64,000 nt of DNA from Squalus acanthias (Eukaryota). The stretch is taken from the NCBI GenBank assembly GCA_030390025.1, contig CM059432.1, forward strand, positions 71,426,001 through 71,490,000, in the 5' to 3' direction. The notes beneath the pieces were generated by a model. It had not been told where the DNA came from. It searched no databases and saw nothing but the letters and a program-made list of their open reading frames with translations. Both the position numbers and the translations under genes were made by a program. Numbering within the stretch: the stretch's first letter is position 1; every line of letters begins with the position of its first letter. This document shows positions 1-51,885 of the stretch, piece after piece.

Positions 1-1103
1 CCAAGAACCAGTCCAGCTCCCTATTGAAGGCATGCAGAGAGACTCACCACTTTCTTGGAAAAGAAGAACAACCTAACATCTAGCCTATTCCTACCGTTGC
101 GTAGTTTTAATGCATAACCCCCTGGTCTAGCCCAATCTGTCAACAGAAACAGTCGATCAATAGGGGTGCAATCCAGCCGTTTCATTATTTTATATACCTC
201 TATCGGGTCATCTCTAAGTCTACACTGCTCTAAAGTAAATAGACCCAGCTCTTTAAACCTATCTGATTAACTTTCTTTAAGCTATGAATCATTATTGTGG
301 CTTTCCTCTGAATCTTTTCTAAGGACACTATATCATTCAACATGCAATAGGACCAAACTTTTTTTAAATTCGCTTTATGAGATGTGGGCGTCGCTGGCAA
401 GGTCAGCATTTATTGCCCATCCCTAATTGCCCTTGAGAAGGTGGTGGTGAGCCGCCTTCTGAACCGCTGCAGTCCGTGTGGTGAAGGTACTCCCACAGTG
501 CTGTTAGGAGGGAGTTCCAGGATTTTGACCCAGCGACGATGAAGGATCGGCGATATACTTCTAAGTCAGGATGGTGTGTGATTTGGAGGGAAACTTGGAG
601 GTGATGGTGTTCCCATGCGCCTGCTGCCCTTGTCCTTCTAGATGGAAGAGGTCGCAGGTTTGGGAGGTGCTGCTGAAGAAGCCTTGGCGAGTTGCTGCAG
701 TGCATCTTGTAGATGGTACACACTGCAGCCACGGTACGCCGGTGGTGGAGGGAGTGAATGTTCATGGTGGTGGATGGGGTGTCAATCAAGCGGGCTGCTT
801 TGTCCTGGATGGTGTTGAGCTTCTTGAGTGTTGTTGGAGCTGCACTCATCCAGGCAAGTGGAGAGTATTCCATCACTCTCCTTACTTGTGCCTTGTAGAT
901 GGTGGAAAGGGTTTGGGATGTCAGGAGGTGAGACACTCACCGCAGAATACCTAGCCTCTGACCTGCTCTTGTTGTCACAGTATTTATGTGGCTGGTCCAG
1001 ATAAGTTTCTGCTCAATGGTGACCCCCAGGATGTTGATGGTGGGGGATTCGGCGATGGTAATGATGTTGAATGTCAAGGGGAGGTGGTTAAACTCTCGCT
1101 TGT

Positions 1104-1281
1104 GTACTGTAAACATTATTGATTATTTGTAAAATTAATCATTGCATTTATATTAACTATAAGGCTGTTTTTAAGGCTTTATTTTTTACTGTGGTGGATG
1201 AATGTAATGGATTTACTATGTAATGGATTTACTATGTAATTGATGAGTTGTACAGGTATTATTGTTTTTGAATAAAAATAT
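1104..1281 (+). mobile_element. 178-bp AT-rich retroposed insert with 16-bp target-site duplication
   Basis: TTAAACTCTCGCTTGT is present at 1088-1103 and 1282-1297. The insert is absent from the homologous site in copy 2 (about 46578-46593) and ends in AATAAAAATAT. Confidence 0.8.
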
Positions 1282-2078
1282 TTAAACTCTCGCTTGTTGG
1301 AGATAGTCATTGCCTGGCACTTCTGTGGCACGAATGTTACCTGCCACATATCAGCCCAAGCCTGAACGTCGTCCAGGACTTGTTGCATGCAGGCATGGAC
1401 TGCTTCATTATCTGAGTAGTTGTGAATGGCGCTGAACACTGTGCAGTCATCAGCGAACTGCCCCATTTCTGACCTTATGTTGGAGGGAAGGTCATTGATG
1501 AAGCAGCTGAAGATGGTTGGGCCTAGGATACTGCCCTGAGGAACTCCTGCAGCGATGTCCTGGGGCTGTGATGATTAACTTTCAACCACCACAACCATCT
1601 TCCTTTGTGCTAGGTATGACTCCAGCCAGTGGAGCGTTTTCCCCCTATTCCCATTGACTTCAGTGTTACTAGGGCTCCTTGATGCCACACTCGGACAAAT
1701 GCTGCCTTGATGTCAAGGGCAGTTACTCTTACCTCACCTTTGGAATTCAGCTCCTTTGTCCATGTTTGGACCAAGGCTGTAATGAGGTCAGGAGCCGAGT
1801 GGTCTTGGCGGAACCCAAACTGGGCATCAGTGAGCAGGTTCTTGGTGAGTTAGTGCCACTTGATAGCACTATCGATGACACCTTCCATCACTTTGCTGAT
1901 GATTGAGAGTAGACTGGTGGGGTGGTAATTGGCCGCGTTGGATTTGTCCTGCTTCTTGTGGACTGGACATACCTGGGCAGTTTTCCACATTGTCGGATAG
2001 ATGCCAGTGTTGTAGCTGTACTGGAACAGCTTGGCTAGAGGCGCGGCTAGTTCTAGAGCACAAGTCTTCAGCATGATA

Positions 2079-3302
2079 AGAACATAAGAACATAAGAAAT
2101 AGGAGCAGGAGTAGGCCAATCGGCCCCTCGAGCCTGCTCCGCCATTCAATAAGATCATGGCTGATCTGATCCTAACCGCCAATCTACTATCTATCACAGA
2201 ACCATCTCCTGCATCTAACAGAATTGCACACACAAAATAGGAGCAGAATCAGGCTACACAGTCCCTGGGCCCGCTCCACTACCCACAGGGCCATGACCGA
2301 TCCGAACCTAGACTCATGTCCAAATTCCTGCCCGCTCCCCGTAACCCTTAATGCCCTTTACTTCTAGGAAACTGTCTATTTCTGTTTTAAATTTAATTAA
2401 TGTTGTAGCTTCTACAGCTTTTTGTGGCAGCATATTCCATGGACCTACCACCCTCTGAGTGAAGTAGTTCCTCCTCATCTCAGTTTTGAAAGAGCAGCCC
2501 CTTATTCTAAGACTATGTCCCCTAGTTCTCGTCTCACCCGTCATCGGGAACATCCTCCCCGCATCCACCCGATCCAACCCCTTCACAATCTTATATGTTT
2601 CAATAAGATCGCCTCTCATTCTTCTGAACTCCAATGAGTAGAGTCCCAATCTACCCAACCTCTCCTCATATGACCACCCCCTCATCCCCGGGATTAACCG
2701 AGTGAACCTTTTTTGCACTGCCTCGAGAGCAAGGATGTCTTTCCTTAAGTAAGGACACCAAAACTGTATGCAGTATTCCAGGTGCGGTCTCACCAATACC
2801 TTGTACAACTGAAGCAATACCTCCCTATTTTTATATTCTATCCCCCTAGCAATGAAAGCCAACATTCCATTTGCCTTCTTAATCACTTGCTGCACCTGCA
2901 TACTAACCTTTTGAGTTTTGTGCACCAGGACCCCCAGATCCCTTTGCACTTCAGTACTCTCCAGTTTCTTGCCATTAAGATAATAAATTGCTCTAGGATT
3001 TTTCCTGCCAAAGTGCATCACCTCACACTTTCCAGTGTTGTATTCCATCTGCCAAATCTCTGCCCACTTACTTAGCCTGTCTATGTCCCCTTGCAGGTTT
3101 TTTATGTCCTCCTCACTCACTACTTTCCCTCCCATCTTAGTATCATCTGCAAATTTTGATATGTTACACTTGGTCCCTTCCTCCAAATCGTTAATATAGA
3201 TTGTAAAGAGTTGGGGACCCAGCACTGACCCCTGTGGAACACCACTAGTTACTGATTGCCAGTCTGAGAATGAACCATTTATCCCAACTCTTTGCTAGCT
3301 CA
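2079..3302 (-). mobile_element. 5'-truncated young CR1 LINE (ORF2 RT C-half, open ORF 2314-3225)
   Basis: ORF contains LGPQLFTIYINDL, KFADDTK, LVRPHLEYCIQFW and RRMRGDLIETYKI. The 3' tail is (TTCTTATG)n. ATGATA is duplicated at 2073-2078 and 3303-3308 in the host LINE. Confidence 0.95.
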
Positions 3303-5328
3303 ATGATAGCTGGGATGTTGTCGGGGCCCATAGACTTTGCTGTATCCAGTGCGCTCTGCCGTTTCTTGATATCACGTGGAGTGAATTGAATTGACTGAAG
3401 ACTGGCTTCTGTGATGGTGGGGACCTCAGGAGTAGGCCGATATGGATCATCCACTTGGCACTTCTGGCTGAAGATGTTTGCAAATGCTTCAGCCTTGTCT
3501 TTTGCACTCACGTGCTGGGCTCCACCATCATTGAGGATGGGGATATTCATGAAGCCTCCTCCTCCCGTTAGTTGTTTAATGGTCCACCACCATTCGCGAC
3601 TGGATGTGACAGGACTGCAGAGCTTTGATCTGATCCGTTGCTTGTGGGATCGCTTAGCCCTGTCTATAGCATGCTGCTTCCGCTTTTTAGCATGCATTTA
3701 GTCCTGTGTTGCAGCTTCCCCAGGTTTGCACCTCATTTTCAGGTATGCCTGGTGCTGCTCCTGGCATGCTCTTCTACACTCGTTATTAAACCAGGGTTGG
3801 TCCCCTGGCTTGATGGTAATGGTAGAGTGAAGGGATATGCTGGGCCATGAGGTTACAGATTGTGGTGGAATACAATTCTGCTGCTGCTGATGGCCAACAG
3901 CACCTCATGGATGCCCAGTTTTGAGCTGCTAGATCTGTTCTGAATCTACCCCATTTAGCACTGTGGTATTGCCACACAATATGATGGAGGGTGTCCTCAG
4001 TGTGAAGACAGGACTTTGTCTCCACAATGACTGTGCGGTGGTCACTGTTACCAATACTGTCATGGACAAATGCATCTGCGACAGGTTGATTGGTAACAGG
4101 TAGGTTTTTCCCACGTGTTGGTTCCCTCACCACTTGTCACAGGCCCAGACTGGCCACTATGTCCTTCACGACTTGGCCAGCTCAGTCAGTAGTGGTGCTA
4201 CTGAGCCACTCTTGGTGATGGACATTGAAGTCCCCCACCCAGAGTAAATTCTGCACCCTTGCTACTCTCAGTGCTTCTTCCAAGTGGTGTTCAACATGGA
4301 GGAGTACTGATTCATCAACTGAGGGAGGGTGGTAATCAGCAGGAGGTTTCCTTGCCCATGCTTGACCTGAAGCCATGAGACTTTATGGGGTCCGGAGTAA
4401 ATGTTGAGGACTCCCAGGGCCACTCCTTCCCGACTGTATACCACTGTGCCACCACCCCTGGTGGGTCTGTCCTGGGATGGTGATGGAGGAGTTTGGGACA
4501 TTGGCTGAAAGGTATGATTCTGTGAGTATGACTATGCCAAACTGTTGCTTGACTAGTCTGTGGGACAGCTCTCCCAATTTTGGCACAAGTCCCCAGATGT
4601 TGCAGGGTCAATTGGACTGGGTGTGCCATTGCCGTGTCCGTAGCCGGTGCCGAGGTCGATGCCAGGTGGTCCATCGGTTTCATTCTTATTATTGTGTTTC
4701 GTAGCGGTTTGTTACAACTGAGTGGCTTGCTAGGCCATTTCAGAGGGCAGTGAAGAGTCAACCACATTGCTGTGGGTCTGGAGTCACATATAGACCAGAC
4801 CAGGTAAGGACGGCAGATTTCCTTCCCTAAAGGACATTAGTGAACCAGATGGGTTTTTATGACAATCCAATAGTTTCATGGTTACCATTACTGATACTAG
4901 CTTTTTATTCCAGATTTATTTAATTAACTGAAATTAAATTTCCCAGCTACATCTCTGGATCGTTAGTTCAGGCCTTTCGATTACCAGCCCGGTGACATTA
5001 CCACTACATTACCATTCCCGTTGGACACAGAACTCTAGATGCTGTCTAACCAAGGACCTGTATAATGAAAGAATGGTGTCTTTGACTTGTATTGAATGGT
5101 TCTATTAATAAAACCCAATAACCTGTTTGCTTTGGCTACAGTTTCTCTGCATTAATCATGAAACTTGTGTGATCTGTGCACAATAACACCTAGATCCTTT
5201 TTCTTTCAATTGCTTTCAGCATAGTTCCCTGCAAATAGTAAATACATTCAGTGTTGGTCCTGCCTACATGCGTCACATTGCATTTGTCTAGGTTCAATGC
5301 CATTTGCCATTATTTGGCACAGTTTAAC

Positions 5329-5682: not shown

Positions 5683-8600
5683 CTTCTAATCACAGCCGAA
5701 CCTGACCTCACTTCTCATCACAATCAAACCTGACCTCACTTCTCATCACAATCAAACCTGACCTCACTTCTCATTACAGTTAAACCTGACCTCACTTCTC
5801 ATCACAGTTAAACTTAACCTCACTTCTCATTACAGTTAAACCTGACCTCACTTCTCATTAAAGTTAAACCTGACCTCACTTCTCATCACAGTTAAACCTG
5901 ACCTCACTTCTCATCACAGTTAAACCTGATCTCACTTCTCATCACAATCAAACCTGACCTCAATTCTCATCACAATTAAACTTAACCTCACTTCTCATTA
6001 CAGTTAAACCTGACCTCACTTCTCATTAAAGTTAAACCTGACCTCACTTCTCATCACAATCAAACCTGATCTCATTTCTCATCACAGTCAAAGCTGATCT
6101 CACTTCTCATCACAATCAAACCTGATCTCACTTCTCATCACAGTCAAACCTGATCTCACTTCTCATCACAGTCAAACCTGACCTCACTTCTCATCACAGT
6201 CAAACCTGACCTCACTTCTCATCGCAATCAAACCTGATCTCACTTCTCATCACAGTCAAACCTGATCTCACTTCTCATCACAGTCAAACCTGACCTCACT
6301 TCTCATCACAGTCAAACCTCACCACACTTCTCATCACAGTTAAACCTGATCTCACTTCTCATCACAATCAAACCTGACCTCACTTCTCATCACAGTTAAA
6401 CCTGACCTCACTTCTCATCACAGTTAAACCTGATCTCACTTCTCATCACAGTTCAACCTGACCTCACTTCTCATCACAGTCAAACCTGACCTCACTTCTC
6501 ATCACAATCAAACCTGACCTCACTTCTCATCACAGTTAAACCTGACCTCACTTCTCATCACAGTTAAACCTGATCTCACTTCTCATCACAATCAAACCTG
6601 ACCTCACTTCTCATCACAGTCAAAACTGACCTCACTTCTCATCACAAACAAACCTGACCTCACTTCTCATCACAATCAAACCTGACCTCACTTCTCATCA
6701 CAGATAAACCTGACCTCACTTCTCATCACAGTTAAACCTGATCTCACTTCTCATCACAGTTAAACCTGACCTCACTTCTCATCACAATCAAACCTGATCT
6801 CATTTCTCATCACAGTCAAACCTGAACTCACTTCTCATCACAGTCAAACCTGACCTCACTTCTCATCACAATCAAACCTGACCTCACTTCTCATCACAGT
6901 TAAACCTGACCTCACTTCTCATCACAATCAAACCTGATCTCATTTCTCATCACAGTCAAACCTCACCACACTTCTCATCACAATCAAACCTGACCACACT
7001 TTTCATCACAGTTAAACTTGACCTCACTTCTCATCACAGTTAAATCTGATCTCACTTCTCATCACAATCAAACCTGACCTCACTTCTCATCACAGTCAAA
7101 CCTGACCTCACTTCTCATCACTGTCAAACCTGACCTCACTTCTCATCACAATCAAACCTGACCTCACTTCTCATCACAGTCAAACCTGACCTCACTTCTC
7201 ATCACAGTCAAACCTGACCTCAATTCTCATCACAATCAAACCTGTCCTCACTTCTCATCACAGTTAAACATGACCACACTTCTCATCACAATCAAACCTG
7301 ACCACAATTCTCATCACAATCAAACCTGACCTCAATTCTCATCACAATCAAACCTGACCTCACTTCTCATCACAGTTAAACCTGACCTCAATTCTCATCA
7401 CAATCAAACCTGACCTCACTTCTCATCACAGTTAAACCTGGCCACACTTCTCATCACAATCAAACCTGATCTCACTTCTCATCACAGTCAAACCTCACCA
7501 CACTTCTCATCACAATCAAACCTGACCACAGTTCTCATCAGTTAAACCTGACCTCAATTCTCATCACAATCAAACCTGACCTCACTTCTCATCACAATCA
7601 AACCTGACCACACTTCTCATCACAATCAAACCTGACCACATTTCTCATCACAGTTAAACCTGACCTCACTTCTCATCACAGTCATACCTGATCTCACTTC
7701 TCATCACAATCAAACCTGACCTCACTTCTCATCACAGTTAAACCTGACCTCACTTCTCATCACAACCAAACCTGATCTCACTTCTCATCACAATCAAACA
7801 TGACCACATTTCTCATCACAACCAAACCTGACCTCACTTCTCATCACAACCAAACCTGATCTCACTTCTCATCACAGTCAAACCTGATGTCACTTCTCAT
7901 CACAATTAAACCTGACCTCACTTCTCATCACAATCAAACCTCACCTCACTTCTCATCACAGTTAAACCTGACCTCACTTCTCATCACAGTTAAACCTGAT
8001 CTCACTTCTCATCACAGTCAAAAATGACCTCACTTCTCATCACACTGAAACCTGACCTCACTTCTCATCACAATCAAACCTGACCTCACTTCTCATCACA
8101 ATCAAACCTGACCTCATTTCTCATCACAATCAAACCTGACCTCACTTCTCATCACAATCAAACCTGACCACACTTCTCATCACAGTTAAACCTGACCTCA
8201 CTTCTCATCACAATCAAACCTGTCCTCACTTCTCATCACAGTTAAACCTGATCTCACTTCTCATCACAATCAAACCTGTCCTCACTTCTCATCACAGTTA
8301 AACCTGACCTCACTTCTCATCACAATCAAACCTGACCTCACTTCTCATCACAATCAAACCTGACCTCACTTCTCATCACAATCAAACCTGACCACACTTC
8401 TCATCACAGTTAAACCTGACCTCACTTCTCATCACAATCAAACCTGTCCTCACTTCTCATCACAGTTAAACCTGATCTCACTTCTCATCACAATCAAACC
8501 TGTCCTCACTTCTCATCACAGTTTAACCTGACCTCACTTCTCATCACAATCAAACCTGACCTCACTTCTCATCACAATCAAACCTGACCACACTTCTCAT

Positions 8601-11600
8601 CTCAGTTAAACCTGACCACACTTCTCATCACAGTAAAACCTGACCTCACTTCTCATCACAGTTAAACCTGTCCTCACTTCTCATCACAGTTAAACCTGAC
8701 CTCACTTCTCATCACAATCAAACCTGACCTCACTTCTCATCACAATCAAACCTGACCTCACTTCTCATCACAGTCAAACCTAACCTCACTTCTCAACGCA
8801 ATCAAACCTGATCTCACTTCTCATCACAATCAAACCTGACCTCACTTCTCATCACAATCAAACCTGATCTCATTTCTCATCACAGTCAAACCTGATCTCA
8901 CTTCTCATCACAATCAAACCTGATCTCACTTCTCATCACAGTCAAACCTGACCTCACTTCTCATCACAGTTAAACCTGACCTCACTTCTCATCACAATCA
9001 AACCTGATCTCATTTCTCATCACAGTCAAAGCTGATCTCACTTCTCATCACAATCAAACCTGATCTCACTTCTCATCACAGTCAAACCTGATCTCACTTC
9101 TCATCACAGTCAAACCTGACCTCACTTCTCATCACAGTCAAACCTGACCTCACTTCTCTTCGCAATCAAACCTGATCTCACTTCTCATCACAGTCAAACC
9201 TGATCTCACTTCTCATCACAGTCAAACCTGACCTCACTTCTCATCACAGTCAAACCTCACCACACTTCTCATCACAGTTAAACCTGATCTCACTTCTCAT
9301 CACAGTCAAACCTGACCTCACTTCTCATCACAGTTAAACCTGACCTCACTTCTCATCACAGTCAAAAATGACCTCACTTCTCATCACACTGAAACCTGAC
9401 CTCACTTCTCATCACAATCAAACCTGACCTCACTTCTCATCACAATCAAACCTGACCTCACTTCTCATCACAATCAAACCTGACCTCACTTCTCATCACA
9501 ATCAAACCTGACCACACTTCTCATCACAGTTAAACCTGACCTCACTTCTCATCACAATCAAACCTGTCCTCACTTCTCATCACAGTTAAACCTGATCTCA
9601 CTTCTCATCACAATCAAACCTGTCCTCACTTCTCATCACAGTTAAACCTGACCTCACTTCTCATCACAATCAAACCTGACCTCACTTCTCATCACAATCA
9701 AACCTGACCACACTTCTCATCTCAGTTAAACCTGACCACACTTCTCATCACAGTTAAACCTGACCTCACTTCTCATCACAGTTAAACCTGTCCTCACTTC
9801 TCATCACAGTTAAACCTGACCTCACTTCTCATCACAATCAAACCTGACCTCACTTCTCATCACAATCAAACCTGACCTCACTTCTCATCACAGTCAAACC
9901 TGACCTCACTTCTCAACGCAATCAAACCTGATCTCACTTCTCATCACAATCAAACCTGACCTCACTTCTCATCACAATCAAACCTGATCTCATTTCTCAT
10001 CACAGTCAAACCTGATCTCACTTCTCATCACAATCAAACCTGATCTCACTTCTCATCACAGTCAAACCTGACCTCACTTCTCATCACAGTTAAACCTGAC
10101 CTCACTTCTCATCACAATCAAACCTGATCTCATTTCTCATCACAGTCAAAGCTGATCTCACTTCTCATCACAATCAAACCTGATCTCACTTCTCATCACA
10201 GTCAAACCTGATCTCACTTCTCATCACAGTCAAACCTGACCTCACTTCTCATCACAGTCAAACCTGACCTCACTTCTCATCGCAATCAAACCTGATCTCA
10301 CTTCTCATCACAGTCAAACCTGATCTCACTTCTCATCACAGTCAAACCTGACCTCACTTCTCATCACAGTCAAACCTCACCACACTTCTCATCACAGTTA
10401 AACCTGATCTCACTTCTCATCACAGTCAAACCTGACCTCACTTCTCATCACAGTTAAACCTGACCTCACTTCTCATCACAGTCAAAAATGACCTCACTTC
10501 TCATCACACTGAAACCTGACCTCACTTCTCATCACAATCAAACCTGACCTCACTTCTCATCACAATCAAACCTGACCTCACTTCTCATCACAATCAAACC
10601 TGACCACACTTCTCATCACAGTTAAACCTGACCTCACTTCTCATCACAATCAAACCTGTCCTCACTTCTCATCACAGTTAAACCTGATCTCACTTCTCAT
10701 CACAATCAAACCTGTCCTCACTTCTCATCACAGTTAAACCTGACCTCACTTCTCATCACAATCAAACCTGACCTCACTTCTCATCACAATCAAACCTGAC
10801 CACACTTCTCATCTCAGTTAAACCTGACCACACTTCTCATCACAGTTAAACCTGACCTCACTTCTCATCACAGTTAAACCTGTCCTCACTTCTCATCACA
10901 GTTAAACCTGACCTCACTTCTCATCACAATCAAACCTGACCTCACTTCTCATCACAATCAAACCTGACCTCACTTCTCATCACAGTCAAACCTGACCTCA
11001 CTTCTCAACGCAATCAAACCTGATCTCACTTCTCATCACAATCAAACCTGACCTCACTTCTCATCACAATCAAACCTGATCTCATTTCTCATCACAGTCA
11101 AACCTGATCTCACTTCTCATCACAATCAAACCTGATCTCACTTCTCATCACAGTCAAACCTGACCTCACTTCTCATCACAGTTAAACCTGACCTCACTTC
11201 TCATCACAATCAAACCTGATCTCATTTCTCATCACAGTCAAAGCTGATCTCACTTCTCATCACAATCAAACCTGATCTCACTTCTCATCACAGTCAAACC
11301 TGATCTCACTTCTCATCACAGTCAAACCTGACCTCACTTCTCATCACAGTCAAACCTGACCTCACTTCTCATCGCAATCAAACCTGATCTCACTTCTCAT
11401 CACAGTCAAACCTGATCTCACTTCTCATCACAGTCAAACCTGATCTCACTTCTCATCACAATCAAACCTGACCTCACTTCTCATCACAATCAAACCTGAT
11501 CTCATTTCTCATCACAGTCAAACCTGATCTCACTTCTCATCACAATCAAACCTGATCTCACTTCTCATCACAGTCAAACCTGACCTCACTTCTCATCACA

Positions 11601-14600
11601 GTTAAACCTGACCTCACTTCTCATCACAATCAAACCTGATCTCATTTCTCATCACAGTCAAAGCTGATCTCACTTCTCATCACAATCAAACCTGATCTCA
11701 CTTCTCATCACAGTCAAACCTGATCTCACTTCTCATCACAGTCAAACCTGACCTCACTTCTCATCACAGTCAAACCTGACCTCACTTCTCATCGCAATCA
11801 AACCTGATCTCACTTCTCATCACAGTCAAACCTGATCTCACTTCTCATCACAGTCAAACCTGACCTCACTTCTCATCACAGTCAAACCTCACCACACGTC
11901 TCATCACAGTTAAACCTGATCTCACTTCTCATCACAGTCAAACCTGACCTCACTTCTCATCACAGTTAAACCTGACCTCACTTCTCATCACAGTCAAAAA
12001 TGACCTCACTTCTCATCACACTGAAACCTGACCTCACTTCTCATCACAATCAAACCTGACCTCACTTCTCATCACAATCAAACCTGACCTCACTTCTCAT
12101 CACAATCAAACCTGACCTCACTTCTCATCACAATCAAACCTGACCACACTTCTCATCACAGTTAAACCTGACCTCACTTCTCATCACAATCAAACCTGTC
12201 CTCACTTCTCATCACAGTTAAACCTGATCTCACTTCTCATCACAATCAAACCTGTCCTCACTTCTCATCACAGTTAAACCTGACCTCACTTCTCATCACA
12301 ATCAAACCTGACCTCACTTCTCATCACAATCAAACCTGACCACACTTCTCATCTCAGTTAAACCTGACCACACTTCTCATCACAGTTAAACCTGACCTCA
12401 CTTCTCATCACAGTTAAACCTGTCCTCACTTCTCATCACAGTTAAACCTGACCTCACTTCTCATCACAATCAAACCTGACCTCACTTCTCATCACAATCA
12501 AACCTGACCTCACTTCTCATCACAGTCAAACCTGACCTCACTTCTCAACGCAATCAAACCTGATCTCACTTCTCATCACAATCAAACCTGACCTCACTTC
12601 TCATCACAATCAAACCTGATCTCATTTCTCATCACAGTCAAACCTGATCTCACTTCTCATCACAATCAAACCTGATCTCACTTCTCATCACAGTCAAACC
12701 TGACCTCACTTCTCATCACAGTTAAACCTGACCTCACTTCTCATCACAATCAAACCTGATCTCATTTCTCATCACAGTCAAAGCTGATCTCACTTCTCAT
12801 CACAATCAAACCTGATCTCACTTCTCATCACAGTCAAACCTGATCTCACTTCTCATCACAGTCAAACCTGACCTCACTTCTCATCACAGTCAAACCTGAC
12901 CTCACTTCTCATCGCAATCAAACCTGACCTCACTTCTCATCACAATCAAACCTGACCACACTTCTCATCTCAGTTAAACCTGACCACACTTCTCATCACA
13001 GTTAAACCTGACCTCACTTCTCATCACAGTTAAACCTGTCCTCACTTCTCATCACAGTTAAACCTGACCTCACTTCTCATCACAATCAAACCTGACCTCA
13101 CTTCTCATCACAATCAAACCTGACCTCACTTCTCATCACAGTCAAACCTGACCTCACTTCTCAACGCAATCAAACCTGATCTCACTTCTCATCACAATCA
13201 AACCTGACCTCACTTCTCATCACAATCAAACCTGATCTCATTTCTCATCACAGTCAAACCTGATCTCACTTCTCATCACAATCAAACCTGATCTCACTTC
13301 TCATCACAGTCAAACCTGACCTCACTTCTCATCACAGTTAAACCTGACCTCACTTCTCATCACAATCAAACCTGATCTCATTTCTCATCACAGTCAAAGC
13401 TGATCTCACTTCTCATCACAATCAAACCTGATCTCACTTCTCATCACAGTCAAACCTGATCTCACTTCTCATCACAGTCAAACCTGACCTCACTTCTCAT
13501 CACAGTCAAACCTGACCTCACTTCTCATCGCAATCAAACCTGATCTCACTTCTCATCACAGTCAAACCTGATCTCACTTCTCATCACAGTCAAACCTGAT
13601 CTCACTTCTCATCACAATCAAACCTGACCTCACTTCTCATCACAATCAAACCTGATCTCATTTCTCATCACAGTCAAACCTGATCTCACTTCTCATCACA
13701 ATCAAACCTGATCTCACTTCTCATCACAGTCAAACCTGACCTCACTTCTCATCACAGTTAAACCTGACCTCACTTCTCATCACAATCAAACCTGATCTCA
13801 TTTCTCATCACAGTCAAAGCTGATCTCACTTCTCATCACAATCAAACCTGATCTCACTTCTCATCACAGTCAAACCTGATCTCACTTCTCATCACAGTCA
13901 AACCTGACCTCACTTCTCATCACAGTCAAACCTGACCTCACTTCTCATCGCAATCAAACCTGATCTCACTTCTCATCACAGTCAAACCTGATCTCACTTC
14001 TCATCACAGTCACACCTGACCTCACTTCTCATCACAGTCAAACCTCACCACACTTCTCATCACAGTTAAACCTGATCTCACTTCTCATCACAGTCAAACC
14101 TGACCTCACTTCTCATCACAGTTAAACCTGACCTCACTTCTCATCACAGTCAAAAATGACCTCACTTCTCATCACACTGAAACCTGACCTCACTTCTCAT
14201 CACAATCAAACCTGACCTCACTTCTCATCACAATCAAACCTGACCTCACTTCTCATCACAATCAAACCTGACCTCACTTCTCATCACAATCAAACCTGAC
14301 CACACTTCTCATCACAGTTAAACCTGACCTCACTTCTCATCACAATCAAACCTGTCCTCACTTCTCATCAGAGTTAAACCTGATCTCACTTCTCATCACA
14401 ATCAAACCTGTCCTCACTTCTCATCACAGTTAAACCTGACCTCACTTCTCATCACAATCAAACCTGACCTCACTTCTCATCACAATCAAACCTGACCACA
14501 CTTCTCATCTCAGTTAAACCTGACCACACTTCTCATCACAGTTAAACCTGACCTCACTTCTCATCACAGTTAAACCTGTCCTCACTTCTCATCACAGTTA

Positions 14601-17600
14601 AACCTGACCTCACTTCTCATCACAATCAAACCTGAGCTCACTTCTCATCACAATCAAACCTGACCTCACTTCTCATCACAGTCAAACCTGACCTCACTTC
14701 TCAACGCAATCAAACCTAATCTCACTTCTCATCACAATCAAACCTGACCTCACTTCTCATCACAATCAAACCTGATCTCATTTCTCATCACAGTCAAACC
14801 TGATCTCACTTCTCATCACAATCAAACCTGATCTCACTTCTCATCACAGTCAAACCTGACCTCACTTCTCATCACAGTTAAACCTGACCTCACTTCTCAT
14901 CACAATCAAACCTGATCTCATTTCTCATCACAGTCAAAGCTGATCTCACTTCTCATCACAATCAAACCTGATCTCACTTCTCAGCACAGTCAAACCTGAC
15001 CTCACTTCTCATCACAGTCAAACCTGACCTCACTTCTCATCGCAATCAAACCTGATCTCACTTCTCATCACAGTCAAACCTGATCTCACTTCTCATCACA
15101 GTCAAACCTGACCTCACTTCTCATCACAGTCAAACCTCACCACACTTCTCATCACAATCAAACCTGACCTCACTTCTCATCACAGTTAAACCTGACCTCA
15201 CTTCTCATCACAACCAAACCTGATCTCACTTCTCATCACAATCAAACATGACCACACTTCTCATCACAATCAAACCTGTCCTCACTTCTCATCACAGTTA
15301 AACCTGACCTCACTTCTCATCACAATCAAACCTGTCCTCACTTCTCATCACAGTTAAACCTGACCTCACTTCTCCTCACAGTTAAACCTGACCTCACTTC
15401 TCATCACAATCAAACCTGACCTCACTTCTCATCACAATCAAACCTGTCCTCACTTCTCATCACAGTTAAACCTGACCTCACTTCTCATCGCAATCAAACC
15501 TGTCCTCACTTCTCATCACAGTTAAACCTCACCACACTTCTCATCACAGTTAAACCTGATCTCACTTCTCATCACAGTCAAACCTGACCTCACTTCTCAT
15601 CACAGTTAAACCTGACCTCACTTCTCATCACAGTCAAAAATGACCTCACTTCTCATCACACTGAAACCTGACCTCACTTCTCATCACAATCAAACCTGAC
15701 CTCACTTCTCATCACAATCAAACCTGACCTCACTTCTCATCACAATCAAACCTGACCTCACTTCTCATCACAATCAAACCTGACCACACTTCTCATCACA
15801 GTTAAACCTGACCTCACTTCTCATCACAATCAAACCTGTCCTCACTTCTCATCACAGTTAAACCTGATCTCACTTCTCATCACAATCAAACCTGTCCTCA
15901 CTTCTCATCACAGTTAAACCTGACCTCACTTCTCATCACAATCAAACCTGACCTCACTTCTCATCACAATCAAACCTGACCACACTTCTCATCTCAGTTA
16001 AACCTGACCTCACTTCTCATCACAGTTAAACCTGACCTCACTTCTCATCACAGTTAAACCTGTCCTCACTTCTCATCACAGTTAAACCTGACCTCACTTC
16101 TCATCACAATCAAACCTGACCTCACTTCTCATCACAATCAAACCTGACCTCACTTCTCATCACAGTCAAACCTGTCCTCACTTCTCATCACAGTTAAACC
16201 TGACCTCACTTCTCCTCACAGTTAAACCTGACCTCACTTCTCATCACAATCAAACCTGACCTCACTTCTCATCACAATCAAACCTGTCCTCACTTCTCAT
16301 CACAGTTAAACCTGACCTCACTTCTCATCGCAATCAAACCTGTCCTCACTTCTCATCACAGTTAAACCTCACCACACTTCTCATCACAGTTAAACCTGAT
16401 CTCACTTCTCATCACAGTCAAACCTGACCTCACTTCTCATCACAGTTAAACCTGACCTCACTTCTCATCACAGTCAAAAATGACCTCACTTCTCATCACA
16501 CTGAAACCTGACCTCACTTCTCATCACAATCAAACCTGACCTCACTTCTCATCACAATCAAACCTGACCTCACTTCTCATCACAATCAAACCTGACCTCA
16601 CTTCTCATCACAATCAAACCTGACCACACTTCTCATCACAGTTAAACCTGACCTCACTTCTCATCACAATCAAACCTGTCCTCACTTCTCATCACAGTTA
16701 AACCTGATCTCACTTCTCATCACAATCAAACCTGTCCTCACTTCTCATCACAGTTAAACCTGACCTCACTTCTCATCACAATCAAACCTGACCTCACTTC
16801 TCATCACAATCAAACCTGACCACACTTCTCATCTCAGTTAAACCTGACCTCACTTCTCATCACAGTTAAACCTGACCTCACTTCTCATCACAGTTAAACC
16901 TGTCCTCACTTCTCATCACAGTTAAACCTGACCTCACTTCTCATCACAATCAAACCTGACCTCACTTCTCATCACAATCAAACCTGACCTCACTTCTCAT
17001 CACAGTCAAACCTGACCTCACTTCTCAATGCAATCAAACCTGATCTCACTTCTCATCACAATCAAACCTGACCTCACTTCTCATCACAATCAAACCTGAT
17101 CTCATTTCTCATCACAGTCAAACCTGATCTCACTTCTCATCACAATCAAACCTGATCTCACTTCTCATCACAGTCAAACCTGACCTCACTTCTCATCACA
17201 GTTAAACCTGACCTCACTTCTCATCACAATCAAACCTGATCTCATTTCTCATCACAGTCAAAGCTGATCTCACTTCTCAACACAATCAAACCTGATCTCA
17301 CTTCTCATCACAGTCAAACCTGATCTCACTTCTCATCACAGTCAAACCTGACCTCACTTCTCATCACAGTCAAACCTGACCTCACTTCTCATCGCAATCA
17401 AACCTGATTTCACTTCTCATCACAGTCAAACCTGATCTCACTTCTCATCACAGTCAAACCTGACCTCACTTCTCATCACAGTCAAACCTCACCTCACTTC
17501 TCATCACAATCAAACCTGACCTCACTTCTCATCACAGTTAAACCTGACCTCACTTCTCATCACAACCAAACCTGATCTCACTTCTCATCACAATCAAACA

Positions 17601-43670: not shown

Positions 43671-46600
43671 TGCCATACAAAAGTAACAGCTTGAATGCTT
43701 CCAGGCCTGAAGGTCTCTGGGGAGGCTGAAAAAAAAGGTTACACATACCTTTATAGATCTTCCTTGCAGGATCCTCCAATCTAAGAAGGGGCCTGGTGCT
43801 AGGCCTACTGCCAATTTCTGCTAACGCCTTGTCTTTGGGTACCCTTCCAGTGAATGTGGAGGAGAATGAGGAGAGAGGACTGGAGTTTTTCCTGCACAAT
43901 CTTTTTACCATGGTTGCCTGTAGTGGTTGTAAGTGCAGGTACTATGCACCTCCTCAGATAAAGCTTGGAAAATGTAGCATCACAGGTCTTCACCCTTTAT
44001 CCCCTTCATTGTGCCTGGAAACGGAGCAGTGCCAAGGCCCACTTGCCAGTAAAGTCAACCTCAGTGAGTCCTGCTGTCTCTACTTGTGCATTGTGCGTCT
44101 TCAGCTATAGCTATCTAATCTTACGGTCCAATAGCCACACTTTTCGAAGTGTTATAGACACAGATGTGAGAGAGAGGTGCCTGTCTGTCTTCTCAACTAG
44201 AGACCAGTGAGCGGTGCTAGGCAAAGCCCTTAAAAACAAAATGACTCAAAATAATATTTTATTTTTCATTTTTTAAAATCAAGAATATAGATTTTAAAAG
44301 AAAAGGGAAAACCAAAATCCCAATAACAAATTGTTCTCCACTCTTAAACTATTCCATTTACTGAGCTCTATTGCAAATTGACAGATTCAGATCATTATCC
44401 CAGATTGGATTCCTGCCTTCAATTTGCAGCTAAATACACACCAGCTCACCATTTGTCTTTTTAAAACTTGTTTACCATTGCAGCAGTCCATTTCTTCAAG
44501 ATGGAGACATTCTTTCAATGTCTTAATGCAGTGCTGCATAACAGAAGGCAGCGGATATTACTATTTAAAAAATATAACGCATGATTGTATGCCGGATCAT
44601 GTGACAGGAACTGCAGTGTTCCCAGGATTTTTTTATTATTCACTCTCCAGTATACTTATTTACAAAAAAAAGGGAGGGATTACAAGAAAATGTTCCCCAT
44701 TGAGAGGTTTAGATGAAATCATAATCCACAAGTATAACAATAAGATTATTAGAATCGCTTAATGCACGTGCTTTTATTTTTAATATGTACGTGTTTTGTT
44801 TTGACCATATAGATTAACATTCTTCTTGCTTTATCAAGATCCATTTTGATGTCTAGGACTTTCTTTTTGATACATGATGATACCTTAACTGAAAGATTAA
44901 TTGTGCAATAATCATCAGAAAATTGCCAGTAATAATCTGCAGTAGACTGTCTGGAAAGAACACTGCTCTGTATATTATCATTACTTAATTACTTGCTCCT
45001 GACAAAACTCATCCGTCTTTTAAGTCATAACTTAAAAGTTCTGTGTTTTACTTTAATTCTTTGATAACTTGTCCTATTTATATATTATATTACGCTGTGC
45101 AGAATATTCTCAGCAAAGCAGAATAAATAAAACGTTCACATCAATAATCATTCTCTAGGGAGCAAACTCAAACCCAAATAGTTAGTCCAGATATTTGTAT
45201 TCATTATTATTTGAAATAAAGATGAAAGCTAATTAGTCTCTACAAATATTTTGCAAGTTCAAGCACATGAAACATGAAGTAGATCTTGACCAGGAAACTG
45301 ATTATTTGCAAAATCAATTCCTGAATCTGAATTTGTAGAAAATTATTGCACAACATGTCTCCTTGAGACACTGCAGGAAAGTTTGTTTTGTTAGTGCCTA
45401 AAGTTCCCTTTATTGGCAGCAGAGGGTTGCCACCAGGAGATCTTCGAGGTGATGTATTTGGAGGAAAGGGTATCCAGTGGAAGGATGCCAGGCAGGTCAG
45501 GCATCCAAGAGGTGCTCTGGGTCCTGCTCCCTGCACCAGCACCCCAACATCCCCAGAGTTAGAAAACCTCATTTTGGCAGGAGTTGTTGATGGAGGCTTC
45601 TCTTCCTAATGACAGCTGTGCCAGCAGACCTGCTGGTGGCATCACAATGAGAAGTGAATGCCAGTCTAACCATTAAGCTAGACGTTTCTTTAGATACCTC
45701 CCAATCACAGCAGGAACGAAGGCATGCCAGGGTAAGCAGGAGTCAGCATTGTCTTTTTGGCCTCACTGATCAAGATGCCGCTAACCATTTCAATAGGCAC
45801 TAGCAAACCCTCCTGGTAACAAATATGGTAACCTGCCTTCCCAGAGTCTTTTTTTTTTCGTTCCTGGGATGTGGGCATCGCTGGCAAGGCCAGAATTTAT
45901 TGCCAATCGCTAATTGCCCTTGAGAAGGTGGTGATGAGCCGCCTTCTTGAACCGCTGCAGTCCGTGTGGTGAAGGTACTCCCACAATGCTGTTAGGGAGG
46001 GAGTTCCAGGATTTTGACCCAACAACAATGAAGGAACGGCGATATACTTCCAGGTCAGGATGGTGTGTAATTTAGAGGGGAACTTGGAGGTGGTGGTGTT
46101 CCCATGCGCCTGCTGCCATTGTCCTTCTAGGTGGAAGAGATCGCGGGTTTGGGAGGTGATGTCGAAGATGCTTTGGTGACTTGCTGAGGTGCATCTTGCA
46201 GATGGTACACACTGCAGCCACGGTGCACTGGTGGTGGAGGGAGTGAATGTTTAAGGTGGTGGATGGGGTGCCAATTAAGTGGGCTGCTTTGTCCTGGATG
46301 GTGTCGAGCTTCTTGAGTGTTGTTGGAGCTACACTCGTCCAGGCAAGAGGAGAGTATTCCATCACACTCTTTACTTGTGCCTTGTAGATGGTGGAAAGGC
46401 TTTGGGGAGTCAGGAGGTGAGACACTCGCCGCAGAATACCTAGCCTCTGACCTGCTCTTGTGGTCACATTATTTATGTGGCTGGTCCAGTTAAGTTTCTG
46501 GTCAATGGTAACCTCCAGGATGTTGATGGTGGGGGATTCGGCGATGGTAATGTTGTTGAATGTCAAGGGACGGTGGTTAGGCTCTCGCTTGTTGGAGATA

Positions 46601-47564
46601 TTTATTGCCTGGCACTTGTGTGGTGCAAATGTTACTTGCCACTTATCAGCCCAAGCCTGAATGTTGTCCAGGTCGTGCTGCATGCGGGCATGGACTGCTT
46701 CATTATCTGAGGAGTTGCAAATGGAACTGAACACTGTGCAATCAGCAGTGAACATTCCCACTTCTGACCCGATGATGGAGGGAAGGTCATTGATGAAGCA
46801 GCTGAAGATGGTTGTACCTTGGACACTGCCCTGAGGAACTCCTGCAACAATGTCCTGGGGCTGAGATAACTGACCTGCAACAACCATAACCATCTTCCTT
46901 TGTGCTAAGTATGACTCCAGCCAGTGGAGAGTTTTCCCCCTGAATCACATTGACTTCAATTTTACTATGGCTCCTTGATGCCACACTCGGTCAAATGCTG
47001 CCTTGATATCAAGTGCAGTCACTCTCACCTCACCTCTGGAATTCAGCTCTTTTGTCCATGTTTGGACCAAGGCTGTAATGAGGTCTAGAGACAAGTGGTC
47101 CTGCCGGAACCCAAACTGAGCATCAGTGAGCAGTTTATTGGTGAGAAAATGTCACTTGATAGCACTGTCGATGACACCTTCCATCACTTTGCTGATGATT
47201 GAGACTGATGGGGCGGTAATTGGCCGGATTGGATTTGTCCTGCTTTTTGTGGACTGGACATACCAGGGCAGTTTTCCACATTGTCTGATAGATGCCAGTG
47301 TTGTAGCTGTACTGGAACAGCTTGGCTCGAGGCGCGGCTAGTTCGAGAGCACAAGTCTTCAGCATGACAGCTGGGATGTCGTTGGGGCCCATAGCCTTTG
47401 CTGTATCCAATGCACTCAGCCGCTTCTTGATATCATGTGGAGTGAATCAAATTAGCTGAAGACTGGCTTCTGTGATGGTGGGGACCTCAGGAGGAGGCCG
47501 ATATGTATCATCCACGCGGCACTTCTGGCTGAAGATGGTTGCAAATGCTTCAGCCTTGTCTTTT

Positions 47565-49003
47565 ACCCCACTATTCAAAAAGGGTGGTAGAGAGAAAGCG
47601 GGGAATTACAGACCGGTAAGCCTGACATCGGTAGTGGGGAAAATGCTAGAGTCCATTATAAAGGATGTAATAGCTGAGCATTTGAAAAACAGTGACAGGA
47701 TCGGACAAAGTCAACATGGATTTACAAAAGGTAAATCGTGCTTGACTAATCTACTGGAATTTTTTGAGGATGTAACTGGGAAAATAGATAAGGGAGAACC
47801 AGTAGATGTGGTGTATTTGGACTTTCAAAAGGCTTTCGATAAGGTCCCGCATAAGAGATTAGCGGGTAAAGTTAAGGCACATGGGATTGGGGGCAAGGTA
47901 TTGACTTGGATAGAGAACTGGTTGGCGGACAGAAAGCAGAGAGTAGGAATTAATGGGTCTTTTTCTGAGTGGCAAGCAGTGACTAATGGGGTACCGCAGG
48001 GATCGGTCCTTGGACCCCAGCTATTCACAATATACATTAATGATCTAGATAAGGGAATTAAATGTAATATCTCCAAGTTTGCAGATGACACAAAGCTGGG
48101 TGGGAGTGTGTGCAGCGAGGAGGATAGCGAGAAACTCCAGGATGATCTGGACAGGTTGGGTGAGTGGGCAGAAGCATGGCAGATGCAATATAACGTGGAT
48201 AAGTGCGAGGTTATCCACTTTGGTGTCAAAAACAGAAAGGCAGACTATTATCTGAATGGCAATAGATTGGGAGAAGGGGAAGTGCAACGAGACCTGGGTG
48301 TCCTTGTGCACCAGTCGCTGAAAGTAAGCATGCAGGTGCAACAGGCGGTGAAGAAGGCAAATGGTATGTTGGCCTTCATAGCGAAAGGGTTTGAGTATAG
48401 GAACAGGGATGTCCTGCTGCAGTTGTACAGGGCCTTGGTGAGACCACACCTTGAGTACTGTGTGCAGTTTTGGTCGCCTTATCTGAGGAAGGATGTTCTT
48501 GCCATGGAAGGAGTTCAGCGAAGATTCACAAGGCTGATACCTGGGATGGCAGGAATGACATATGAGGAGAGATTGGGTCGATTGGGCTTATACTCACTGG
48601 AGTATAGAAGAATGAGAGGGGATCTCATCGAAACATATAAAATTCTGACAGGTCTGGACAAACTAGATGCAGGAAGAATGTTCCCGATGGTCGGAGAGTC
48701 CAGAACCAGGGGTCATAATCTATGGATAACGGGTAAACCATTTAGGACAGAAATGAGGAAGAATTTCTTCACCCAGAGGGTGGTGAACCTGTGGAATTCT
48801 CTACCACAGAAGGTAGTTGAGGCGAAGTCATTAAATATATTCAAGGATGAGTTAGATATATTTCTTAAAGCTAAAGGTATCAAGGGATATGGGGAGAAGG
48901 CAGGTACAGGGTACTGAGTTTAGATGATCAGCCATGATCTCATCGAATGGCGGAGCAGGCTCGAGGGGCTGAATGGCCTACTCCTGCTCCTATCTTCTAT
49001 GTT
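47565..49003 (+). mobile_element. Young 5'-truncated CR1 LINE with uninterrupted RT ORF (to 48917), inserted in LINE copy 2
   Basis: TPLFKKG..NYRPVSLTS..YLDFQKAFDKV..PQGSVLGP..FADDTK..LVRPHLEYCVQFW. The host sequence resumes at ACGTGCTGGG; about 6 host bases (GCACTC in copy 1) are missing and there is no TSD. Confidence 0.95.
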
Positions 49004-49811
49004 ACGTGCTGGGCTCCGCCATCATTGAGGATGGGGATATTCATGAAGCCTCCTCCTCCATTAGTTGTTTAATTAACCACCACCATTCACGACTGGATGT
49101 GGCAGGACTGCAGAGCTTTTATCTGATCCGTTGATTGTGGGATCGCTTAGCCCTGTCTATAGCATGCTGCTTCCGCTGTTTAGCATGCATGTAGTCCTGT
49201 GTTGCAGCTTCCCCAGGTTGGGAGCTCATTTTTAGGTACGCCTGGTGCTGCTCCTGGCTTGCTCTTCTGCACCCCTCTTTGAACCAGGGTTAATCCCCTG
49301 GCTTGATGATAATGATAGAGTGGGGGATATGCTGGCCATGAGGTTGCAGATTGAGGTGGAATACAATTCTGCTGCTGCTGATGGCCCACAGTGCCTCATG
49401 GATGCCCAGTTTTGAGCTGTTAGATCTGTTCTCAATCTATCCCATTTAGCACGGTGGTAGTGTTACACAACTCGATGGAGGGTGACCTCAGTGTGAAGAC
49501 ACGACTTCGTCTCCACAAGGACTCTGTGGTGCTCATTGATACCAATGCTGTCATGGACAGATGCATCTGCAACAGGTAGATTGGTGAGAATTACATCAAG
49601 TAGGTTTTTCCCTCATGTTGGTTCTCTCACCACCTACCGCAGACCCAGTCTGGCAGCTATGACCTTCAGGACTCAGTCAGCTCGGTCACTAGTGGTGCTA
49701 CCGAGCCACTCTTGGTGATGGACATTGAAGTCTCCTACCCAGAGTATATTCTGTGCCCTTGCTACCCTCAGTGCTTCTTCCAAGTGGTGTTCAACATGGA
49801 GGAGTACTGAT

Positions 49812-51147
49812 GACCAGTTAGCCTAACATCTGTCATTGGGAAAATGCTGGAGTCCCATCATTAAGGAAGTGGTAGCAGGACATTTAGAAAGTCATAATAT
49901 AGTCAAGCAGAGTCAGCATGGTTTTATGAAAGGGAAATTATGTTTGATAAATTTGTTGGAGTTCTTTGAGGATGTAATGAGTAGGGTGGATAAAGGGGAA
50001 CCAGTAGATGGCGTGTATTTGGATTTCCAGAAGGCATTCGATAAGGTGCCACATAAAAGGTTACTGCACAAGATAAGAGCTCACGGGGTTGGGGGTAATA
50101 TATTAGCATGGATAGAGGATTGGCTAACTAACAGAAAACAGAGAGTCGGCATAAATGGGTCATTTTCAGGTTGGCAAACTAACTAGTGGGGTGCCGCAGG
50201 GATCAGTACTGGGGCCTCAACTATTTACAATCTATATTAATGACTTGGATGAAGGGACCGAGTGTAATGTAGCCAAATTTGCTGATGATACAAAGATAGG
50301 TGGGAAAGCAAATTGTGTGGAGGATGCAAAGAATCTCGAAAGGCTAAGTGAGTGGGCAAAAATCTGGCAGATGGAGTATAATGTGGGAAAATGCGAGGTT
50401 ATCCACTTTGGTAGGAAAAATAAAAAAGCAAATTATTATTTAAATGGGGAGAGATTACAAAATGCTGAGGTACAGAGATATCTGGGGATCCTTGTACATG
50501 AATCACAAAAGGTTAGCATGCAGGTACAGCAAGTAATTAAGAAGGCAAATGGAATGTTGGCCTTTATTGCAAAGGGAATGGAGTATAAAAGTAGGGAAGT
50601 CCTGTTACAACTGTATAGTGCATTGGTGAGACCACACCTGGAGTACTGCGTACAGTTTTGGTCTCCTTATTTGGAGGCAGTTCAGAGAAGGTTCACGAGG
50701 TTGATTCCAGAGATGAAGGGGTTGTCTTATAAAGAAAGGTTGAGCAGTTTGGGCCTATACTCATTGGAGTTTAGAAGACTGAGAGGGGATCTTATTGAAA
50801 CATATAAGATTCTGAAGGGGCTTGACAGGGTATATGCAGAGAGGATGTTTCCCCTCATGGAGGAATCTAGAACTAGGGGGCATAATTTCAGAATAAGGGG
50901 TCGCCCATTTAAAACGGAAATGAGGAGGAATCCTTCTCTCAGAGGGTCGTGAATCTTTGGAATTCTCTTCCCCAGAGAGCTGTGTCATTGAATATATTTA
51001 AGGTGGAGATAGATAGATTTTTGAATGGTAAGGGAGTCAAGGGTTTTGGGGAGCGGGCAGGGAAGTGGAGTTGAGGCCATGATCTTATTGAATGGCGGAG
51101 CAGGCTCGAGGGGCCAAATGACCTACTCCTGCTCCTAGATCTTATGT
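49812..51147 (+). mobile_element. 5'-truncated CR1 LINE (frameshifted) inserted in LINE copy 2
   Basis: ORFs 49836-50186 and 50155-50952 carry CR1 RT motifs. Host GGAGTACTGAT|TCATCAGCTGAGG is split around it. Confidence 0.93.
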
Positions 51148-51789
51148 TCATCAGCTGAGGGAGGGCGGTAGGTGGTAATCAGCTGGAGGTTTCCTTGCCC
51201 GTGCTTGACCTGAAGCCGTGAGACTTCATGAGGTCCAGAGAATCAGTGTTGATGACTCCCAGGGCCACTCCCTCCCGACTGTATACCACTGTGCTGCCAC
51301 CTCTGATGGGTCTGTCCTGCCGATGGGACAGGACACACCCACGGATGGTGATGGAGGAGACTGGGCTGAAAGGTATGATTCTGTGAGTATGACTATGTCA
51401 GGCTGTTGCTTGACTAGTCTGTGGGACAGCTCTCTCAATTTTGGCACAAGTCCCCAGATGTTAGTGAGGAGGACTTTGCGGGGTTGACTGGGCTGGATGT
51501 GCCATTGTCATGTCCAAAGCCAGTGCCGAGTGGTCTGTCCGGTTTTATTCTTATTATTGCTTTTCGTAGCAGTTTGTTACAACTGAGTGGCTTGTTAGGC
51601 CATTTCAGAGGGCAGTTAAGAGTCAACCACAAGGAGTCACATATAGGCCAGACCAGGTAAGGACAGAAGATTTCCTTCCCTAAAGACATTAGTGAACGAG
51701 ATGGGTTTTTATGACAATCCAATAGTTCCATGATCACCATTACTAGCTTTTTATTTCAGATTTATTTAAGTGAATTTAAATTCCCAGCT

Positions 51790-51885
51790 TCCGTGGTGGG
51801 ATTTGAACTCACGTCTACTGGATCATTAGCGCAGAGCTTCTGGATTACTAGTCCAGTAACATAACCACTAAGCTACCATTCCCGT
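51790..51885 (-). promoter_or_regulatory. tRNA(Thr-AGT)-like head with Pol III internal promoter (A box and B box)
   Basis: Minus strand: A box TAGCTTAGTGG (51865-51875), anticodon arm CTGGA-CTAGTAA-TCCAG (51840-51856), T arm/B box GTGAG-TTCAAAT-CCCAC (about 51796-51812). Confidence 0.8.

Follow-up and report, generated by a model that had tools for sequence, protein, structure and literature searches.

The window analysed here, a 64,000-nucleotide stretch of the Squalus acanthias genome (assembly GCA_030390025.1, contig CM059432.1, positions 71,426,001 to 71,490,000), contains two copies of a 3.3-kb long interspersed nuclear element (LINE) that begins with a tRNA-derived head, lacks an ORF1 and carries a single open reading frame (ORF) with apurinic/apyrimidinic endonuclease (APE) and reverse transcriptase (RT) domains. 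The sense strand of this family is depleted of the T clusters at which RNA polymerase III (Pol III) terminates, and the element appears from its sequence to work like a T+ short interspersed nuclear element (SINE) at both ends. We consider it probable that its full-length retrotransposition RNA is made by Pol III, and propose more tentatively that the same RNA also serves as mRNA; a protein-coding element may thus be transcribed by a polymerase to which only non-coding RNAs are ascribed.

Results

Copy 1 (359..5021, minus strand) is decayed and interrupted by two later inserts, without which its pieces (359-1103, 1287-2076 and 3303-5021) sum to 3,254 nt. Piece by piece it is 82-91% identical to copy 2, and the piece that was scored shows 95.6% identity to the majority consensus of the family, built from 87 distinct loci (three duplicates being dropped from 90), most of them 95-97% identical to it. 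As the preliminary description had stated, these 3,254 nt hold no sense-strand run of four or more T; 16 T3 runs and 12 sense runs of at least four A are present, and every plus-strand AAAA between 359 and 5021 (1131, 1274, 2234 and 2760) lies within the two inserts. The consensus also has no T4 and seven T3 runs, while 231 real family pieces (397,597 nt) hold 55 T4 runs, i.e., 0.14 per kb compared with 5.9 per kb in flanks. The single T4 of copy 2 (47146-47149) had been regarded as a private mutation, which is confirmed by a family majority without T4 at that site, and the neighbouring CR1 does carry a sense T run as described (T6 at 47760-47765). Altogether, the three CR1 inserts of the window contain 2 (the later insertion in copy 1 at 2077..3302, minus strand, taken as a control), 3 and 5 sense runs of at least four T.

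Since the sense strand is only 19.6% T, few T4 runs are expected. For copy 1, none was observed against 4.6 expected under base shuffles (P=0.008), 2.25 under dinucleotide shuffles (P=0.09) and 1.9 under trinucleotide shuffles (P=0.085), and for the consensus against 3.9 under base shuffles (P=0.02) and 1.9 under codon-preserving ones (P=0.11). A wider panel was defined as windows with four T in five nucleotides, corresponding to the motifs T4, T3VT, TVT3 and T2VT2 tested for human Pol III, which terminates partially at the interrupted runs T3VT, TVT3 and T2VT2 (PMC3141230; this and the other papers cited here by PubMed Central number were available in part, and what is said of them is limited to those parts). 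The whole consensus contains one such window against 20.8 expected (base shuffle; 0/1000 shuffles as low), and the ORF one against 9.5 under shuffles that preserve both the protein and its codon usage (P=0.003); the sole survivor is a T2CT2, for which 15% termination was measured (PMC3141230). The shortest terminators, TTTT and TVTTT (PMC8466645), are absent against 7.6 expected (P=0.001), or 4.0 under codon shuffles (P=0.011). The equivalent motif in A, C or G, as well as on the antisense strand, occurs at expectation, and the depletion is restricted to T and to the sense strand. The selection against Pol III terminators suggested in the preliminary description thus fails the shuffle check for TTTT alone when codons are preserved, and passes it for the wider panel.

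Comparison with other elements bears out a further part of that suggestion, since neither headless relatives nor CR1s are equally depleted. Among 152 related sequences, 124 were kept after dropping those lacking a stop-free frame of 450 codons, and the family is lower than all 124 related ORFs on all seven T measures. TT across codon boundaries, where there is little protein constraint, occurs eight times against 24 expected (observed-to-expected ratio, O/E, 0.33), compared with a median of 0.93 and a minimum of 0.53 in the 124 ORFs. Moreover, the three nearest invertebrate relatives with DNA available carry two, four and four T4 runs, with TT O/E of 0.93-1.02. The LINE controls from the same genome comprised CR1 pieces and one short L2 piece only; 29 distinct CR1 pieces have 6.0 terminators per kb and a boundary TT O/E of 0.89. 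Only four terminators occur over the 2,443 nt of five old pieces of the family (69-73% identity). Among private substitutions the two strands are nearly alike (T>C in runs 6.5 and A>G 5.7 per 1000), so that host mutation does not account for the loss of T runs.

The tRNA-derived head of copy 1 (4950..5019, minus strand) shows a 5' GGG, an A box at about 5011-5001 and an anticodon-like arm with its duplicate. Copy 2 (45848..51883, minus strand; pieces 45848-47564, 49004-49811 and 51171-51860) has an intact head with the B box at 51810-51799, as well as a private TCTTT near 51686. Against the Rfam tRNA model, positions 7-64, a single-arm copy scored 23.3 bits (E 0.0038) and a copy with a duplicated arm 16.2 bits; the anticodon arm is duplicated between the A and B boxes in most copies, and both boxes are kept in most headed copies. 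The head is visible only in short scans, whole-window scans with ARAGORN and Rfam (E<=1) returning nothing. Likewise, Rfam scans of the window and of the heads gave no 5' HDV-like ribozyme, although diverged ribozymes can be missed in this way. Release of the head by RNase P is not favoured, because the acceptor stem has no match (the Rfam match covers positions 7-64 only). No source of the head was found among eight host tRNA loci scanned, which were Lys and Cys; by eye, its loop resembles an AGT (Thr) anticodon. Host tRNA genes also occur in tandem units of about 1.8 kb (L363-L391; G000 C29, C1484, C1516, C2208, C3407) whose spacer holds an old RT-like (CR1) fragment, and those scanned were Lys(TTT).

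The 5' end of the family is fixed 8 nt before the A box, since the first 8 nt are shared and the upstream flanks are unrelated: the 8 nt were matched with at most two mismatches at 48 of 75 head-bearing places, many of which had been found with head queries. Among 30 copies selected only through their protein, 10 extend to nt 40 or beyond, 11 more end within the leader and nine at nt 347-449, and no other shared 5' end was seen. Five of these 30 (L279, L290, L296, L299, L301) begin at consensus nt 347-356, just past the candidate ACG start, in an A-rich stretch, which may reflect either microhomology-driven truncation or a second, headless 5' end. Head and ORF form one unit in many copies, and an old copy (about 71% identity) with both in order indicates that the architecture is older than the main burst.

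Downstream of the head, the leader body (4703..4949 in copy 1, minus strand) also occurs in short SINE-form elements, in which the leader is followed at once by the LINE tail. Eight such leader-to-tail elements occur in the loci examined, and leader-tail joints were present in contigs of all four sequencing runs guessed to be RNA, from four organisms, in which the family contigs show neither strand, start nor level. Some short SINE forms are 74-87% identical to the leader, pointing to an old SINE that shares this module, and the start of the ORF near the end of the SINE bodies (about nt 340) favours capture of the 5' part of a SINE by the LINE, presumably by template switching, a mechanism discussed in PMC4824008. 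At L086:282-740, a minisatellite has arisen from a piece of about 30 nt of this common SINE body. By eye, no likeness to the MetaSINE domain was found in two bivalve MetaSINE alignments, available in part. The flanks also contain a separate SINE of putative Deu type, which is not masked by the family.

At the 3' end, the family has the order AATAAA, a variable T run about 40 nt later and an A tail, and the only recurrent T run of the element is this one at its very end. In copy 1 (minus strand) the AATAAA lies at 409..414, about 40 nt before the T run, and the 3' end at 359..368 consists of T3 followed by A7. Among 91 ends found, 84 could be parsed, with run lengths before the tail of T0 (10), T1 (38), T2 (13), T3 (8), T4 (7), T5 (4), T6 (2), T9 (1) and T10 (1), so that at least two T are present in 36/84 ends and at least four in 15/84. 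In B2-type SINEs, Pol III stops at varying points of the terminator and the RNA is then polyadenylated (PMC8466645), and the T-run lengths of the family look like the truncated and re-elongated terminators of B2. The arrangement of the two ends lends further weight to the suggested selection against Pol III terminators.

The consensus consists of a leader of about 340 nt, in which no ORF1 was found, one 969-codon frame (stop to stop) with APE and RT, and a short tail. In copy 1 this frame (423..4702, minus strand) has acquired stops and frameshifts and is divided by the two inserts. The preliminary description had noticed no in-frame AUG just before the APE start, which holds true, the first in-frame ATG being codon 283 of 969, beyond the APE domain; its caution that decay might be the reason does not apply, since the AUG is missing from the consensus too. 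Upstream, the consensus has 9-10 other AUGs. The likely protein start is an ACG near the junction of leader and ORF (4700..4702 in copy 1, minus strand; 51567-51565 in copy 2), which is in frame with APE about 35 codons before its first strand and lies 10 nt past the last in-frame stop. Among the eight commonest triplets at this site are ACG in 87, ACA in 18 and ATG in eight copies, a spread that reads as the pattern of a decaying CpG. Starting there would add a basic N-terminal extension of about 35 residues, and the relatives have Met-started basic extensions of about 25-35 residues. Frame-preserving indels follow the ACG in 93/112 copies; they fall within a trinucleotide repeat and were given no weight.

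A start at an upstream AUG followed by a frameshift is not favoured: the AUG at consensus 359 is ATG in 88 and ATA in 31 copies, that at 414 is mostly ACG, and no canonical slippery heptamer was seen. A whale shark gene model (P0190) joins the frame of an upstream AUG to APE, probably through decay.

By its domains and copy pattern, the element is a LINE and not a member of the SINEs, of which only the leader-to-tail derivatives have the short, non-coding form. First-look searches gave 7,723 to 24,487 candidates, depending on the query, in the 3.7-Gb genome, and the copies are dispersed and 5'-truncated with an A-rich 3' tail, 20/30 ORF-selected ones ending short of nt 40. In two natural copies, Pfam detected RVT_1 (E 2.9e-37) and Exo_endo_phos_2 and no other family. 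A crude search of 30 copies revealed no consistent target-site duplication, the matches being short or in simple repeats. Some copies are internally inverted or rearranged (L005, L028, L077, L083, L273), as twin priming would give.

In a quick RT tree of 67 rows, the family and the whale shark rows fall inside an amphioxus/invertebrate clade, and the CR1 of the same genome falls outside it on a long branch. Invertebrate ORF1-less APE-RT relatives are up to 42% identical over 802 aa, and the closest named homologues are whale shark gene models with 59-71% identity, which are fragments. Assignment to CR1 in the strict sense (HER1-type) was rejected because the RT groups elsewhere, there is no ORF1 and the tail consists of A instead of a microsatellite. 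The labels HER1-type, Deu-type, V-type, Crack and Zenon are assumed by us and based on no alignment. Of the three nearest relatives with DNA available, the one with upstream DNA has no tRNA gene there and, by eye, an in-frame AUG; none of the 10 loci of invertebrate relatives scanned has a tRNA gene upstream. Viral contigs contained no relative of the family, and a search with an old copy for a younger divergent subfamily returned main-family copies only. Many bacterial metagenome-assembled genomes of marine symbionts include contigs with eukaryotic LINEs (L201-L272), probably through host contamination.

Besides copies 1 and 2, the window holds a 28-bp satellite array (5683-34590; 1,033 copies, 91% matches, 29 kb) and a repeat of about 890 bp, present at 56764-57657 and 62893-63786 with 87% identity and with 12 similar pieces in the flanks. 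The second insert of copy 1 is an AT-rich 183-nt sequence (1104..1286, no strand assigned) with a direct repeat of about 15 nt on both sides and an internal 16-bp tandem repeat. Copy 2 contains CR1 inserts at 47565-49003 and 49812-51170, the former belonging to a very young subfamily with 39 further matches at 99% identity, several with open frames of 950 codons.

Discussion

The observations can be arranged into the following mechanism. Long ago, an ORF1-less APE-RT LINE would have acquired its 5' end by capturing the first 340 nt or so of a SINE with a tRNA head. TFIIIC would bind the A and B boxes, and Pol III would start at +1, read through 3.3 kb and stop at varying points of the terminal T run, an A tail then being added as in T+ SINEs. 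The RT would copy this RNA without an ORF1; for Alu, Pol III-made RNA needs ORF2 only, while Pol II-made RNA also needs ORF1 (PMC2666806). A master copy with an internal terminator would yield RNA without the 3' recognition tail and die out, and such losses would amount to selection removing T clusters. Protein synthesis would probably begin at the ACG near the junction of leader and ORF. In its fullest form, a fully autonomous "coding SINE" in which one 3.3-kb Pol III transcript, ended by the T run, polyadenylated, cap-free, started at ACG and lacking ORF1, is both mRNA and template, the proposal is somewhat doubtful; the old SINE body would then possibly act as the ribosome-recruiting element. 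Translation from the Pol III RNA itself seems to be the least certain step of the model.

A variant that shares the Pol III-made template, and is fairly unlikely in our view, divides the labour: protein would be supplied in trans from the capped Pol II RNA of some copies and act, as with SINEs, on whatever RNA carries the tail. In favour of this variant are the normally non-coding nature of RNAs made by Pol III, the mobilisation in trans of the tail-sharing SINE forms and the lack of unusual structure in the leader (leader body folding compared with shuffles, z -0.36; head, z -0.71 and -0.38). However, an RNA used only in trans would be under no selection for its ORF, and yet no stop interrupts the 969 codons of the majority frame, which fits use in cis, though not by Pol III RNA alone; furthermore, scanning ribosomes would hardly be expected to start at an ACG that is preceded by many AUGs.

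Alternatively, the element may be a Pol II one with a relic head, its captured SINE module now working as a plain 5' UTR or driving Pol II from an internal position, or its RNA arising by host read-through. Under this reading, which we regard as unlikely, the T-poor, C/A-rich strand would come from avoidance of U-rich decay, splicing or immune-sensing signals, or from an error bias of the RT. It would accommodate a TT depletion wider than the terminator motifs, the low contents of T (19%) and Phe (1.9%), the partly T-poor L201 of the same clade, undepleted SINE controls and the many copies ending in AATAAA plus A tail, and transcription of LINEs is commonly ascribed to Pol II (PMC5786205). It leaves unexplained why the 5' end is fixed at tRNA position 1 and most headed copies have retained their A and B boxes, and why at least two T precede the tail in 36/84 ends. 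A capped, scanning mRNA would also have to pass the 9-10 upstream AUGs, and the near strand symmetry of private substitutions argues, as a weak test, against RT bias. Finally, chance in a T-poor sequence or a majority-consensus artefact is highly improbable and largely refuted: although no more than 2-4 T4 runs would be expected and the strictest nulls yield P of about 0.1, these nulls yield P<=0.003 for the wider panel, and the T4 density of real copies, far below that of flanks, agrees with the consensus.

Several points weigh against transcription by Pol III. TTTT alone is not significantly depleted when codons or dinucleotides are kept (P 0.09-0.12), and several mutually correlated statistics were tried, the terminator panel itself being taken from published experiments. 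TT at codon boundaries is as rare as CpG, beyond what termination needs, and another pressure avoiding U may therefore contribute. None of 115 shared variants creates a terminator, but only about one was expected, so that this test says little. The controls are imperfect as well, since most relatives are AT-rich (median T 30% compared with 19%); the clade member L201, whose 5' end is missing, is partly T-poor, and a young CR1 of the same genome is mildly low under codon shuffles (13 against 18.7, P=0.044). Two SINE consensuses from the same genome, made from 71 and 65 mixed flank matches and intended as positive control, are not depleted (6 against 3.8 and 2 against 3.4), indicating that short Pol III elements tolerate weak terminators; the cumulative cost of terminators would be larger for a 3.3-kb RNA than for a short SINE, which is an argument and not a test. 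Additionally, the head scores below the Rfam gathering score of 29, copy 1 itself lacks the B box through a deletion of about 24 nt near 4950, an IRES-like structure was rejected because head and body fold no better than shuffles, and the commonest 3' end (T1, 38/84) is AATAAA plus A tail, an ending that Pol II could produce as well.

By the textbook division, LINEs are made by Pol II and coding, and SINEs are made by Pol III and non-coding. If the proposed mechanism is true, this split is broken by a high-copy family that combines a Pol III promoter with an ORF free of terminators and an end resembling that of T+ SINEs, and whose transcript would be a natural long Pol III mRNA. SINEs have been held unable to encode protein, with Pol II and Pol III signals that may conflict (PMC5786205). 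The family would also offer a direct test of whether an element's need for ORF1 depends on the polymerase that transcribes it (PMC2666806), suggest a testable function for a SINE body conserved over a long time, and supply a natural design for expressing long, terminator-free RNAs by Pol III.

Comparison With Known Systems

No description of a tRNA-headed coding LINE was found in the open literature; Repbase, Dfam and subscription journals lay outside the search, and the element may already be catalogued there. It is not described in the available parts of PMC4824008, PMC3747384, PMC2666806, PMC5499810, PMC8466645, PMC12358842, PMC5786205, PMC3141230 and PMC5381603. In cartilaginous fishes, SINEs with a tRNA head and a LINE tail belong to the shark pairs HE1/HER1 and SacSINE1/L2 (PMC3747384, PMC5499810); insofar as those parts allow a judgement, their body, tail and partner LINE differ from the family and no headed LINE is described. 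The LINEs of amphioxus and marine invertebrates (P0001-P0120) and the whale shark homologues resemble the family in having one APE-RT ORF whose product bears a short, basic extension at the N terminus, but the invertebrate relatives seen have an AUG start, T4+ runs and no upstream tRNA gene.

R2 is translated from uncapped RNA without an AUG start, and provides a precedent for an uncapped RT-coding RNA. Like the family, the LINEs R2, RTE and Ingi, which carry 5' self-cleaving ribozymes (PMC5786205), have no ORF1; their RNAs are released by cleavage of longer transcripts of Pol I or Pol II, whereas the family has no ribozyme match. In Bov-tA, CoeSINE4 and SINE2-1_ACar, which join a tRNA head to 5' and 3' parts of an RTE/Vingi LINE, the SINE shares both ends with its partner LINE, as it does here. 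However, in such pairs only the non-autonomous partner has a head, and the LINE is regarded as Pol II-made (PMC5786205), while here it is the coding LINE that is headed. In architecture, the family resembles the T+ tRNA-derived SINEs, exemplified by rodent B2 (PMC8466645, PMC12358842), which also start with a head containing A and B boxes, have an AATAAA, a variable T run and an A tail, and lack an internal terminator. B2-type SINEs are short and non-coding, whereas the family described here is 3.3 kb long, encodes an APE-RT protein and has its AATAAA about 40 nt before the T run.

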